A stretch of DNA of 64,000 nt from Gemmatimonadota bacterium. Its GTDB lineage: Bacteria > Gemmatimonadota > Gemmatimonadetes > Longimicrobiales > Gaopeijiaceae. Made by a program: the position numbers and the translations under genes. The notes beneath the pieces were generated by a model. It was not told the origin of the DNA. It saw only the letters and a program-made list of their open reading frames with translations, and ran no database searches. Numbering within the stretch: the first letter of the stretch is position 1; every line of letters begins with the position of its first letter. Of the stretch, positions 1,231 through 10,168 are shown piece after piece. The stretch spans positions 96,001 to 160,000 of the forward strand of contig JBDHHQ010000003.1 in the NCBI GenBank assembly GCA_039589315.1. Reading direction: 5' to 3'.

Positions 1231-2802
1231 TCAGAACAGTGCCTTGTTGCCGGGATACCAGCGGACGCCGGTACGAAGGGACAGAGAGGTCGCGACCCCG
1301 GCGGAGTACTCCACATCCACGGTGTTTCCCGTGGACCGCAAGATGTCCTCGGCGTCCTTCCGGGACCACGAGACCGTGTCTCCGCCGGTGGCGACGGCAC
1401 GGAAGACGAGGCCGGCGAAGATGCCCGTTGTCGGTCCCAGATCGTACGTCAGATCAGCGAACAGGTGCCCGCCCGGGGCGAACCAGGTGCGGTCCGTCCA
1501 CTCCACCTGGGGGGGATTCTCCGCGATGGGGTCGGCCAGCTGGTTGTTGCTGCCCCGATCCAGCTCGAGGCGCTGCCACGTGAACGTCGGGCCGAAGCCC
1601 AACTGGGCGTTCCACGTGTCCCCGTTGAGCACGTCGAAGGCGAACCAGAGATCTGCGCCCACGCTCTGGAAGTTCCGGTCGAAGGTCTGGGTCAGCAACG
1701 TCGGGGTCTGGTAGGTGCCGGTCGAGGACGCGGCTCCGCCGAACAGCGAGACACCGAAGAACCCGAACCTCCCGGTGTTCCACCGGACGCTCCCTTCGAT
1801 GCCGGGCCCTGTGCCGACCTCCTCCGTATAGAACGTGGCCCGAGGGTCCCGGCCGTTGGGTCGGATCAACACGGTCCCGTCGTAGAGCGTGGACGTGCCC
1901 CGTGCGCTCAGGGCGAGCGAGAGTGTCCAACGCGGACCGATGGGCGCGTGGTCGTCCAGCCCCAGCGCCGGGCCTCGCCCATCCTCGGTGTAGATCCGCA
2001 GGACTCCGTACCGTCCCATGTCGCCGTAGAGTACGCCCGCTTCGATGGGCGGCACCAGCTCGAATCGGTCGACCCGCTGCGGGTCCATGGCGATCAGGCT
2101 GCTGATGGCGTCCTGCATGAGGAGGTCGTCCACGACCACCTGCACCATGTGGCAGCTCGGCCCGTTCGCGAAGCGGCGGCGGAAGCGGTTGCTTTCGATG
2201 CAGATCGAGTCGGGGCGCTGCCGCACCGTCAGGCCCGGGACGCGGGCGGCTGCCACGAGGTCGCCCATCGTGGCTACCCGGGTGCGCACGGCATCCACCT
2301 CCTCCGGGCTCATGCCGTCGAAGCGGCTTCCCCTGGCGACCCTGGCGTCGACCTCCCGCGACCGGGCCGTCACGGAAAGGCCCGCGACCTCGATGGGACG
2401 GGTCGCGATCCGAAACTCCACCATGACCCGCTCGCCGGCGGTGACGACGAGGGAGTCCGACTGCAGTCCGTAGCCGATGTGCCGGACCTGGATCTCGTAG
2501 GATCCCGGCCGCAACCGGTCCAGGCGAAACTGTCCGAGGTCGTCGGTCACCTGGGTCCCGGGCACGCCCGCCGCGCCCACCGTCGCACCCTCCACCGATT
2601 CGTTCGTCTCGGCGTCCAGCACGCGTCCGATCACGGTGGCCTCGAGGCTCTGGGCCCGGATGTCGACCGCGCCCTGGGGCGCCAATGCCACGGCCAGGGC
2701 CAGGGCCCCCAGGGGCAGGGGCCGGCGGAGGCACCGAAGCGTTGCCCGGGGCTGCCGCGAGGGCGAGGCGCTCCCGCTCAATGGCGGGCCGATGGCGGGC
2801 AT
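1231..2802 (-). CDS. Exported protein: carboxypeptidase-regulatory-like domain + TonB plug-like domain + short beta-barrel
   Basis: Signal peptide; GRVLDAETNESVEGATV..TDDLGQF..HIGY; plug-like FELV....AGVLYG....GVLRIYT; amphipathic C-terminal strands. Start uncertain (ORF-track start 2847 overlaps the riboswitch). Confidence 0.65.
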   Translation of the reverse strand: MPAIGPPLSGSASPSRQPRATLRCLRRPLPLGALALAVALAPQGAVDIRAQSLEATVIGRVLDAETNESVEGATVGAAGVPGTQVTDDLGQFRLDRLRPGSYEIQVRHIGYGLQSDSLVVTAGERVMVEFRIATRPIEVAGLSVTARSREVDARVARGSRFDGMSPEEVDAVRTRVATMGDLVAAARVPGLTVRQRPDSICIESNRFRRRFANGPSCHMVQVVVDDLLMQDAISSLIAMDPQRVDRFELVPPIEAGVLYGDMGRYGVLRIYTEDGRGPALGLDDHAPIGPRWTLSLALSARGTSTLYDGTVLIRPNGRDPRATFYTEEVGTGPGIEGSVRWNTGRFGFFGVSLFGGAASSTGTYQTPTLLTQTFDRNFQSVGADLWFAFDVLNGDTWNAQLGFGPTFTWQRLELDRGSNNQLADPIAENPPQVEWTDRTWFAPGGHLFADLTYDLGPTTGIFAGLVFRAVATGGDTVSWSRKDAEDILRSTGNTVDVEYSAGVATSLSLRTGVRWYPGNKALF

Positions 2803-2810
2803 GATACCTT
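2802..2810 (+). promoter_or_regulatory. Possible extended -10 element (TGnTACCTT) for the metH leader
   Basis: TGATACCTT matches TGnTAnnnT about 20 nt upstream of the riboswitch. Confidence 0.35.
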
Positions 2811-2828
2811 TCTGTTCAGGTGATTCGT

Positions 2829-2880
2829 CCGGGGTGATTTGCGGCATATTGCGGCCCTGTCAAAGAAACCGCTAAAAAGC
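2829..2880 (+). ncRNA. SAM-II (SAM_alpha-type) riboswitch aptamer
   Basis: CGGGG-UGAUUU-GCGGCAUA-UUGCGG-CCCUG-UCAAAGAAA-CCGCUAAAAAG. P1 is CGGGG/CCCUG, followed by the conserved UGAUUU loop. Pseudoknot UUGCGG/CCGC(U)AA has the bulged U. Lies upstream of metH. Confidence 0.82.
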
Positions 2881-2886
2881 CACGTC

Positions 2887-2921
2887 CTCGGCGCAGCTCT
2901 TGCGGCGAGCTTTTTCTTTTT
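2887..2921 (+). terminator. Intrinsic terminator (riboswitch expression platform)
   Basis: Hairpin CTCG-G-CGCA[GCTCT]TGCG-G-CGAG followed by CTTTTTCTTTTT, a rare T-run in this GC-rich DNA. Confidence 0.75.
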
Positions 2922-3007
2922 GACCACCTGCTCCGTCGGTGGCCGGAAGGGCGAATCGTCGCCGCACCGCCCCGGGTCGTCCCCCGGTCGAAAGGAACGC
3001 GGGCCCC

Positions 3008-6708
<3,701 letters not shown>

Positions 6709-6712
<4 letters not shown>

Positions 6713-8583
6713 GCGCACGGGAGCTGCGGGAGCTCATCGAGGACGGCCGCGTCCATGTGATGGACGGCGCCATGGGTACGATGCTCTACGCCCGGGGCGT
6801 CTTCGTGAACGTGTGCTATGACGAGCTCAACGTCACCGAGCCCCGCCTGGTGCAGGACGTCCACGAGGCGTACGTGAGCGCCGGGTCCGAGATCATCGAG
6901 ACCAACACGTTCGGGGCCAACCCCGTCAAGCTGTCGAGCTGGGGGCTCGACGAGCGGACCGAGGAGATCAATCGGGCCGCAGCGCAGCTGGCCCGGGCCG
7001 CGGCCCGTGGGAAGGCCACCGTGCTCGGTGCCGTCGGGCCGCTGGGGATCCGCATCGAGCCGTGGGGCCCCACGTCACGCGCCGAGGCCCAGGCCCTCTT
7101 CCGACGCCAGCTCCAGGGGCTCCTCGAGGGTGGGGCGCACGGCTTCGTGCTCGAGACGTTCAGCGACCTCAGCGAGCTCGAGCAGGCGTACCGGGCCGCC
7201 CGCGATCTGTGTGATTTGCCCGTGTTCGCCCAGATCACGGTGGGCGAAGACGGAGCCACCGCGTACGGAACCGCGCCGGAGGTGGCGGCCTGGACGATGG
7301 CCGACTGGGGCACCGACGTGGTGGGCCTCAACTGCTCGGTGGGACCCGCCGTCATCCTGGACGCCGTGGAGCGCATGGCAGAGGTCACGGACCGGCCCCT
7401 CTCGGCACTGCCCAACGCCGGACTGCCCCGAGCGGTGGGCGACCGGATGATCTACATGGCGAGTCCCGAGTACATGGCCCAGTACGCGCGCCGGTTGCTC
7501 GAGGCAGGCGTGCGCTTCGTTGGGGGCTGCTGCGGGACTACGCCGGATCACATCAGCCGTATACGGGACACCGTCGCGTCGGTGCAGCCCAGGCCGGTCA
7601 CGGTGGGGATAGGCGCGGCACGGGTGCCCCCTGCCCCGCCGGGCCTCGAGGAGTCGCCCCTGGCCTCGCGGTCCGCGTGGGGGCGCAAGCTCTCCACCGG
7701 CTCCTTCGTAACGAGCGTCGAGGTCATGCCAGGGCGCGGCTGGGACGCAGGCCGGCTCGTCGAGGCGGCGCGGGCCCTGCATCGGGCCGGTGTCGACGCG
7801 GTCGCGATTCCGGACAGCCCGCTCGCGCAGGGCCGGATGGCTGCGGTACCTGCCGCCCTGGTGGTGGAGCGAGACGTGGGCATCGAGACCCTGGTCCACT
7901 ATACCTGCCGAAACCGCAACATGATCGGCATGGTGAGCGACCTTCTCGGAGCGGCCGCGGCGGGACTCCGCAACGTCCTGCTCGTCACCGGAGACCTTCC
8001 CACCGAAGGTCCGTACGCCCAGGCCACGCCCGTCTTCGACATCGACTCCATCGGCCTCACGAACGTCGTGCACCATCTGAACCGGGGCGTGGACCCCGGT
8101 GGCAGCTCCATCGGCGAAGCCACCCGCTTCGTGATCGGCGTGGCCTTGAATCAGGGTGCCCGGGACATGGAGCGAGAGCTGGAGCGCTTTGCCTACAAGG
8201 TCGAAGCCGGTGCCCACTTCGCGGTCACTCAGCCCGTCTTCGCCGTGGAGGATCTGGCCCCCTTCCTCGAGCGGAGCAAGGCCTGGGCGATTCCGGTCGT
8301 CGCTGGCGTCTGGCCGTTCACCTCCCTCCGGAACGCCGAGTTCCTGGCCAACGAGGTTCCCGGGGTGCGGGTGCCGGACTCCGTGGTCCGGCGCATGCGA
8401 GACGCTGACGCCCGGGGTCAGGAGGCCGCGCAGCGAGAGGGCATGGCCATCGCCAACGAGGTCATCGAGGCCGTCCGGCCGCTGGTGGCGGGGGTCCACG
8501 TGGGCACGCCGGGACCCGTCACGGAAGCCATAGAGCTGCTGGCTTCGACGGACGTGATCCCCCTTTCGGGAACGGGCCGCTGA
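6709..8583 (+). CDS. yitJ: Bifunctional homocysteine S-methyltransferase / 5,10-methylene-THF reductase
   Basis: [14 protein letters not shown] and GGCCGTTP, then an MTHFR domain ([19 protein letters not shown]); ATGA overlap with metH. Confidence 0.92.
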
Positions 8584-9529: not shown

Positions 9530-10168
9530 ATGTCCGAACCACAACCCCCGCAACGAAACCCCTTGGCGATCGCCGTGCTGGTGACGGCGGGCGCGATGGC
9601 GAGTGGCGGCTGTTCACTCGCCTCCGAGGGAACCGCCCCCTTCGAGCGGCCGCGGCCGGAGGCGCGTGGGGAGACACCGGGCAGCGACTCCGGAGGGCAC
9701 GCGACAGGGGAGCCCGACCCCACGGTCGGTGCCACGACTTCACCGGCGGCGGAAGGCGCCCTGCCCCGGCCGGAGCTGAAGAGTCGCTACGGCAACCCCG
9801 AGTCGTATGTCGTCTTCGGGCAGCGGTACGAAGTGCTGGACTCGAGCCGGGGGTACGTACGGGAAGGCATCGCGTCGTGGTACGGCGAGCCGTTTCACGG
9901 CCGACGCACCTCGAACGGCGAGGTCTACGACATGCACGCCCTCACCGCCGCCCACAAGTCCCTGCCGCTCCCGACCTACGTTCTGGTCACCAACCTCGAG
10001 AACGGCCGCCAGGTGGTCCTCCGCGTAAACGATCGTGGGCCCTTCCACGGCGGCAGGATCATCGACGTGTCATTCTCGGCGGCGCAGAAGCTCGGGATGA
10101 TCGGGCCCGGGACGGCGCGCGTGGAGGTTCGCGCCCTGGACCCACCGGCGACTGACCGGGGCCGGTAG
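9530..10168 (+). CDS. rlpA: Septal ring lytic transglycosylase RlpA family lipoprotein (no SPOR domain)
   Basis: Lipobox SGGC; GIASWYG..FHGRRTSNGEVYDMHALTAAHKSLP, RVNDRGPF; AGGAGG RBS. Confidence 0.92.
   Translation: MSEPQPPQRNPLAIAVLVTAGAMASGGCSLASEGTAPFERPRPEARGETPGSDSGGHATGEPDPTVGATTSPAAEGALPRPELKSRYGNPESYVVFGQRYEVLDSSRGYVREGIASWYGEPFHGRRTSNGEVYDMHALTAAHKSLPLPTYVLVTNLENGRQVVLRVNDRGPFHGGRIIDVSFSAAQKLGMIGPGTARVEVRALDPPATDRGR

Follow-up and report, generated by a model that had tools for sequence, protein, structure and literature searches.

How does a methionine synthase gene come under the control of S-adenosylmethionine (SAM) when its ribosome-binding site (RBS) lies some 110 nt beyond the SAM aptamer in its leader? 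The question is raised by the metH leader in a 64,000-nt stretch of contig JBDHHQ010000003.1 (GenBank assembly GCA_039589315.1, forward-strand positions 96,001–160,000), which we refer to as a whole as the window. A first-pass annotation of these letters had read the leader as a SAM-II riboswitch joined to a transcription terminator; sequence comparison likewise points to transcription attenuation as the most likely mode of control. We predict with good confidence that positions 2821–2921 form a SAM-II OFF switch that attenuates transcription of a metH–yitJ operon.

A SAM-II Aptamer Upstream of metH

Searched with all 4227 Rfam families, the 64-kb window returned one match, RF00521 (SAM_alpha) at 2821–2895 on the plus strand. 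It spans model positions 1–79, the full length of the model, and reaches 38.5 bits, above the gathering score of 36 (E = 3.8e-5). A search of the genome to which the window belongs gave E = 9.3e-7 for the same leader, and the family was detected in none of 14 control genomes. The match ends 113 nt upstream of metH, on the same strand.

The SAM-II hallmarks named in the first-pass annotation are all in place on the plus strand. The P1 stem-loop (2830–2859) pairs CGGGGU (2830–2835) with GCCCUG (2854–2859) through six standard pairs, two of them G·U. Its loop carries L1—GAUUU (2836–2840) followed by the variable part GCGGCAUA—as well as the pseudoknot 5′ strand, UUGCG (2849–2853). An A-rich L3, UCAAAGAAA (2860–2868), whose AAA columns are invariant or nearly so among relatives, leads into the pseudoknot (P2b) 3′ strand. 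This last segment consists of CCGC-U-AA, an A-run, and GC (2869–2880) and serves as the switching segment; within it, CGC-U-AA (2870–2875) pairs with UUGCG.

We aligned the window copy with 55 other distinct SAM-II matches from the same phylum (56 sequences) and asked whether the proposed pairs are maintained. Standard pairs fill 91.9% of the P1 and pseudoknot cells, compared with 30.9–48.6% when the partners are slid. Four pairs have changed on both sides (19 cells), and none of 500 shuffles matched the observed pairing or the covariation score. P1 is paired in 93.4% of cells, with compensatory changes at two pairs; the pseudoknot is paired in 90%, with GCUAAA invariant, and three of its five pairs show no variation in the phylum sample whereas the other two have changed on both sides. 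The window has the shared residue in all 15 invariant columns, shows no noticed departure across 14 nearly invariant ones, and forms standard pairs at all 11 P1 and pseudoknot positions. Its P1, CGGGG/CCCUG, differs from the form usual in the phylum sample, CGUGG/CCACG. Judged by these comparisons, the aptamer is a genuine member of RF00521, beyond what chance would give.

Most leaders of the class also share ACAAYYGA about 3–5 nt 5′ of P1 (alignment columns 1–11 and the preceding 12 nt), at which place the window has GGTGATTCG. This motif is possibly a −10-like promoter element, in which case transcription would start at the foot of P1. A promoter scan of 2400–3200 found no sigma-70-like site. 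A search for sequencing runs that contain 2500–3900 brought up no RNA run, only DNA runs sharing a small part of its words, a result neutral as to expression.

A Terminator Hairpin Between Aptamer and Gene

Seven nucleotides past the switching strand, a hairpin begins at 2887 and runs to 2909 (plus strand). Its arms, CUCG-G-CGCA and UGCG-G-CGAG, form 8 bp with one G·G mismatch around the loop GCUCU (−12.2 kcal/mol). The U-tract that follows (2910–2921) has the form C-U5-C-U5, with 10 U in 11 nt, and is the expected site of transcript release. This terminator-like unit, also recognized in the first pass, keeps both stem arms identical in a genome of the same genus (G001), in which the loop reads AUUUCU against AGCUCU in the window and the tail differs too. 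Directly past the U-tract lies a second hairpin, GACCACC/GGUGGCC (2922–2944); the G001 3′ arm, GGUGGUC, turns its A·C mismatch into an A–U pair.

The gene on the other side of the leader is divergent (1231–2802, minus strand, ATG at 2802) and encodes a protein with a signal-peptide-like N terminus and a CarboxypepD_reg domain. Because no plus-strand gene ends upstream of the aptamer, the terminator cannot belong to a preceding gene.

To set the hairpin in a comparative frame, we took 57 of the roughly 150 SAM-II matches in a phylum-wide genome sample, all with distinct leaders, and scanned each for one hairpin at least as stable as −9 kcal/mol with a U-rich tail behind it. Such a unit is present in 47 of the 57 leaders. 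In 45 its end lies no more than 60 nt from the Rfam match, against 1/53 coding, 2/57 reverse-complement, and 8/57 shuffled controls. An aptamer followed by a terminator is the rule in the phylum sample.

Predicted Attenuation Mechanism and Candidate Antiterminators

In the switch that we propose, SAM binding would lock P1 (2830–2835 with 2854–2859) together with the pseudoknot/triplex (2849–2853 with 2870–2875, plus L1). The terminator 5′ arm (2887–2895) would then be free to pair with 2901–2909, and RNA polymerase would let the transcript go within the U-tract (2911–2921). Without SAM, an alternative pairing would hold one terminator arm and transcription would continue into metH. A route through RBS occlusion is absent: the aptamer 3′ end, AAAAAGCC, carries no Shine–Dalgarno (SD) sequence, and the SD-like GAAAGGAA (2990–2997, plus strand) stands about 110 nt from the aptamer end, upstream of the metH ATG at 3008, at the distance given in the first pass.

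Three pairings come into question for the alternative structure. Within SAM-dependent termination we rank first a pairing, AT1, between the P1 5′ strand and the terminator 5′ arm: CG.CCGGGG (2826–2834, plus strand) with CCUCGG.CG (2886–2893). Its core joins CCGGGG (2829–2834) to CCUCGG (2886–2891) and encloses a nested GCGG:CCGC helix; its outer pairs, at 2826–2827, are uncertain and possibly fall outside the transcript. In folds of the growing transcript, the P1 hairpin is the minimum-energy structure up to 2880, and AT1 takes over in transcripts ending at 2890–2909 (−20.2 to −24.8 kcal/mol). With the terminator enforced, the best fold at 2909 reaches −24.3 kcal/mol, so the two states are near isoenergetic. 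At that length the equilibrium probability is 0.26 for AT1 and 0.24 for P1. AT1 is kept and extended in G001, which pairs GGGGUG with CACCCC.

The second candidate, AT2, would act as a remnant or helper. Its 3′ strand, GCUCUU-GCGG (2896–2905, plus strand), pairs with CCGC-UA-AAAAGC (2869–2880), setting GCGG opposite the leader's own CCGC and GCUCUU opposite AAAAGC, and it sits at the position of a site conserved in the class and described below.

The third pairing was the one favored by the first-pass annotation: without SAM, the aptamer tail AAAAAGC (2874–2880) would pair with GCUUUUU (2909–2915, plus strand) as antiterminator, and SAM would withdraw the tail and let the terminator work. The 7-nt complementarity is exact. 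With ligand bound, the pseudoknot/triplex takes up A2874–A2875 and probably further A-run residues, and in a related leader (L101, genome G002) the corresponding strand has its complement in the U-tract plus the next 5 nt (GCUGC-U-AAAAAG with CUUUUUGCAGC). The difficulty is geometric. The helix encloses the terminator stem and shares G2909 alone with it, so the two can coexist as one nested hairpin (2874–2915; −13.3 kcal/mol, vs. −12.2 for the stem alone) and termination is not blocked. In G001 the partner reads GCGUUUU and an inserted G breaks the helix. A match of this kind is expected by construction, A-rich tails being common to all SAM-II and U-tracts to all terminators. At the moment of the intrinsic termination decision, moreover, the U-tract is still held in the RNA:DNA hybrid, and upstream A-tracts that pair with a U-tract strengthen terminators rather than weaken them; both facts count against an antiterminator here. 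The complementarity thus stands, its antiterminator role is very unlikely, and we treat GCUUUUU as a basal extension of the terminator hairpin.

A Putative Antiterminator Design Conserved in Related Leaders

The class-conserved site that AT2 recalls is best seen in the leaders of relatives. In many metH leaders of the class, the terminator loop and 3′ arm are complementary over 11–13 bp to the pseudoknot 3′ strand with its A-run. Locus L108, for example, sets GUCGCUAAAAAGC against GCGUUUUUGGCGAC; in such leaders the duplexes reach −17 to −18.6 kcal/mol, and none of 300 shuffles did as well. The 11–13-nt complement of the GUCGCUAAAAAGC type recurs in L108, L114, L115, L120, L127, L128, L133, and other metH leaders, where it would make a well-defined antiterminator catching the distal half of the terminator. 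In all 15 leaders of the GUCGC type the terminator contains GCGAC, GCGGC, or GCGAU, usually some 0.6 of the way along it. Because the 15 are homologs, this agreement reflects conservation more than independent covariation. Across the set, 24 of 44 leaders have, within the cognate terminator, 5 nt complementary to the NNNGC strand, compared with 31% for non-cognate terminators and 30% for shuffles, an excess that stems mainly from one homologous subfamily. The window has no 5-nt site; its terminator (CCUCGGCGC...GCGGCGAG) looks, by eye, similar to the terminators of L128, L110, and L101. Tested against the next 60 nt, the pseudoknot 3′ strand is complementary at P ≤ 0.05 in 18 of 56 rows, three rows of the set (L093, L116, and L132) being anchored on a wrong GCUAAA-like motif.

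These leaders suggest a wider scheme, which we put forward tentatively and hold to be possible rather than probable. In Gemmatimonadota, SAM-II would be the main SAM sensor, with a characteristic platform, GUCGCUAAAAAGC : GC(G)UUUUUGGCGAC (11–13 bp), whose antiterminator catches the distal half of the terminator and not its 5′ arm; the lineage of the window would keep a 4+5-bp remnant and may instead have come to rely on the terminator 5′ arm invading P1. The accessible parts of the literature yielded no description of a distal-half platform.

Truncated folds bring out a further arrangement. Several leaders have, in the variable part of L1, a complement to the terminator 5′ arm or to its loop, and the sequences involved vary from group to group: CGGCAGC:GCUGCCG, GCCGCCG:CGGCGGC, and GACGC(G):(C)GCGUC. 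The leaders concerned are L103 and L104, which precede metK; L084–L087 and L100; and L093 and L094. The modeled complementarity suggests another antiterminator design in the same phylum. The L1 of the window, with UGCGGC, could form just 5 of the terminator's pairs.

Evidence Against Attenuation and Two Alternatives

Several results weigh against an attenuator in the window. The RF00521 score is just 2.5 bits over the cut-off, and the near-identical G001 copy, at 34.4 bits, falls under it. SAM-II is patchy in the window's own family, with matches in 7/24 genomes of the order-level set and 1/16 of the phylum sample. A simple terminator scan gives 1 site, compared with 0.5 ± 0.7 in shuffles, and the fold of the whole leader is no more stable than those of shuffles (z = +0.86). 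Because hairpin and U-tract alone are not significant, support for the terminator is comparative, drawn from G001 and the phylum leaders. The antiterminators fare similarly. Complementarity of the P1 5′ strand to the terminator 5′ half, on which AT1 depends, is not above chance in the window (shuffle P = 0.23 and 0.34); the corresponding values are 0.05 and 0.12 in G001, 0.55 and 0.50 in L101, and 0.014 and 0.014 in L092. AT2 amounts to −5.5 kcal/mol in the window, with a probability of about 0.01, and the pseudoknot 3′ strand is complementary to the next 60 nt at P = 0.28. Finally, the terminator pairs reach about 0.7 equilibrium probability at 2909 without SAM, so the switch would have to be kinetic, or leaky.

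The borderline score, the subthreshold G001 copy, and the patchiness of SAM-II in the family could all be read as signs of a chance resemblance or a decayed relic, in which neither aptamer nor hairpin would function. Against this stand the invariant and nearly invariant columns, which are kept, and the 11 pairs, all of them standard. The element also lies exactly where relatives have SAM-II, upstream of metH, and is almost unchanged in G001. We regard a relic as extremely improbable.

A constitutive or SAM-independent terminator deserves somewhat more weight, while still being unlikely in our judgment. The aptamer would then act through RNA stability, a riboswitch-derived small RNA (sRNA), or distant translation, as described for S. 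meliloti metA. Such a terminator would fit the results just given—no statistically supported antiterminator in the window, and a terminator at about 0.7 without ligand—and it has a precedent: for the validated terminator downstream of the metA riboswitch, no SAM-II-driven antiterminator could be predicted, according to the available text of Scheuer 2022 (PMC9373788). The same text places GAGG in the 3′ strand of the S. meliloti metA aptamer, whereas the window strand has no SD. The hairpin starts 7 nt past the switching strand, and the 11–13-bp complements of the pseudoknot 3′ strand in many same-class terminators argue that terminators in the phylum are wired to the aptamer. Transcription attenuation by SAM, with AT1 as the leading candidate antiterminator, therefore remains the reading that we prefer.

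Genes of the Operon and the Probable Host

The genes downstream agree, by their Pfam domains, with the metH and yitJ-like assignments of the first pass. metH (3008–6712, plus strand) encodes a complete cobalamin-dependent methionine synthase of 1234 aa with five Pfam domains. The yitJ-like gene (6553–8583, plus strand), with S-methyl_trans and MTHFR domains, is listed with a TTG start that overlaps the end of metH by 160 nt; with a Pfam match that starts only at residue 69, the gene probably begins just past the metH stop at 6712.

The host had been thought probably non-proteobacterial, and the gene comparison points the same way. When the first 300 residues of MetH were compared with genomes of named species, the top three matches by E value were metagenome-assembled genomes (MAGs) of Gemmatimonadales/Gemmatimonadetes, at 65–68% identity, with other phyla close behind (59–65%). 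Four of five such named MAGs carry RF00521, about 45–150 nt upstream of metH. The host is thus probably a member of the Gemmatimonadota, on the basis of one protein and a common leader architecture rather than a marker-gene phylogeny.

Distribution of SAM-II Across the Phylum

RF00521 is present in 18 of 41 order-level relatives of the window genome, in 12 of them above the cut-off; the phylum-wide sample of 151 genomes has it in 107, with 101 above that threshold. These counts include two genomes flagged as unpublished (G025, which is L091, and G096, which is L129), and no statement hangs on these two alone. The distribution is uneven: two families are nearly saturated, with matches in 65/71 and 31/31 genomes, whereas several sampled families have none (0/13 in one instance). 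A scan of 20 related loci against Rfam returned only RF00521 (13 matches), and the regions past their terminators matched no known family.

We surveyed the genes downstream of SAM-II by taking the longest open reading frame (ORF) that starts within 520 nt of each of 55 SAM-II matches; L088 and L097, which are too short, and L090, a duplicate of L089, were excluded. S-methyl_trans, of metH or yitJ type, is encoded by 38 of the 55 ORFs, and metK accounts for three. PALP and Abhydrolase_1 occur twice each, two ORFs have no family, and one each encode Cys_Met_Meta_PP, AA_kinase, MTHFR, GHMP kinase, Pantoate_transf, Aminotran_1_2, Response_reg, and RimK. Besides S-methyl_trans and metK, most are enzymes of the methionine/cysteine pathway. 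At four loci (L106, L111, L130, and L113), SAM-II matches of 49.6–60.6 bits with terminators precede genes not obviously linked to methionine: panB (Pantoate_transf), a response-regulator receiver protein, a GHMP kinase that is possibly a homoserine kinase, and a class I/II aminotransferase.

A literature search found no paper pairing a word beginning in Gemmatimonad- with SAM-II, the Rfam species list lying outside that search. The host range of SAM-II in the Gemmatimonadota may thus be undocumented in print.

Tandem and Possible Leader-Peptide Arrangements at Other Loci

A second SAM-II occurs in the same genome, on contig C121 at about 9791–10033 (L002, 1332–1574), on the minus strand, and at 35.7 bits it narrowly misses the cut-off. 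Behind it come a GC-rich hairpin of 10 bp with the tail CUUUCCUUU and then a canonical four-helix SAM-I (RF00162, 64.6 bits). This SAM-I is the only one in the genome; the 3′ strand of its P1 overlaps the SD of a 387-aa ORF. The ORF matched no Pfam or NCBIfam family; its Atlas clusters are hypothetical at 0.93–0.94, with YbjN/CesT leads below 0.9. The genome carries about 5% contamination, which bears on the origin of C121, and the SAM-II on this contig is of the same type as those in two genomes of the same family (L097 and L098), at neither of which loci the Rfam scan found SAM-I or SAM-IV. Among tandems, the available sections of Sherlock 2022 (PMC9481103) list SAM-II/SAM-V and SAM-II/SAM-I-IV, not SAM-II with canonical SAM-I; Barrick & Breaker 2007, as far as its text was accessible, gives no species having SAM-I as well as SAM-II.

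Four loci of the same order (L084, L085, L087, and L094) carry a small ORF of 31–43 codons located 45–300 nt past the SAM-II match, beyond aptamer and terminator. Each holds a run in which 5–8 of 8 consecutive codons specify Met or Cys (e.g., MCMMMCM), a pattern found at 4 of 58 loci; L086 and L093 are also Met-rich. A second strong terminator follows the small ORF, and then comes a methionine/cysteine gene (Cys_Met_Meta_PP, PALP, a homoserine-acetyltransferase-like Abhydrolase_1, or AA_kinase). In sequence, these loci resemble a tandem of a riboswitch and an attenuator based on a Met/Cys leader peptide. The small-ORF regions gave no Rfam match, and our search found no relevant paper on attenuation by methionine-codon leader peptides.

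Discussion

The first-pass annotation took RBS occlusion to be the usual mode of SAM-II, which made the terminator seem exceptional; the literature bears out neither that premise nor the novelty of the terminator. Terminators have been reported to follow SAM-II frequently since the discovery of the class: the accessible text of Corbino 2005 (PMC1273637) and of Barrick & Breaker 2007 describes them as often present, mostly in alpha- and beta-Proteobacteria. Corbino 2005 (PMC1273637), in the same sections, places SAM-II (the metA motif) in alpha-proteobacteria, a few other proteobacteria, and the Bacteroides group. Available portions of two later papers also counter the premise. In Scheuer 2022 (PMC9373788), the S. 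meliloti metZ SAM-II is predicted to terminate upon SAM binding, giving the sRNA RZ; in Sherlock 2022 (PMC9481103), a terminator stem comes after the SAM-II unit in 149 SAM-II/SAM-V tandems and in many of 44 SAM-II doublets.

Set beside terminator-type SAM-II such as S. meliloti metZ, as far as these sources describe it, the metH-leader element has the same H-type pseudoknot, P1, GAUUU L1, UUGC:GC-U-AA P2b, and A-rich L3. It likewise lies in the leader of a methionine/SAM gene with an intrinsic terminator between P2 and the ORF, an arrangement that implies an OFF switch. Unlike the examples reported earlier, it has a host that is probably a member of the Gemmatimonadota, not of the Proteobacteria or Bacteroidetes, a score near the cut-off, and a P1 of CGGGG/CCCUG. 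It also recalls the SAM-II unit of the "bi-mechanism" SAM-II/SAM-V and SAM-II/SAM-I-IV tandems, in which the available text of PMC9481103 likewise puts an intrinsic terminator stem invariably after the aptamer; unlike them, the window has a single aptamer. With the RBS-occluding SAM-II (Sargasso Sea metX, the crystallized form) and with SAM-V, the element would share the ligand-binding fold, judging from family membership. Those RNAs sequester the SD in the pseudoknot 3′ strand, according to the accessible part of PMC9373788, whereas the strand in the window lacks an SD, with the RBS at a distance of about 110 nt.

We therefore view the element in the metH leader as an ordinary example of SAM-II in a little-studied lineage, with a terminator arrangement that was already known. 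Its value lies in the annotation that it gives to the predicted regulation of a metH–yitJ operon in an uncultured, probably gemmatimonadotal lineage, and in the setting to which it belongs. SAM-II, "alpha-proteobacterial" in Rfam naming, is widespread here, occurring in 107 of the 151 genomes sampled from this phylum, and mostly comes with a terminator. For the question of how an intrinsic terminator is driven by a pseudoknot aptamer about 50 nt long, the leaders compared here could serve as material.

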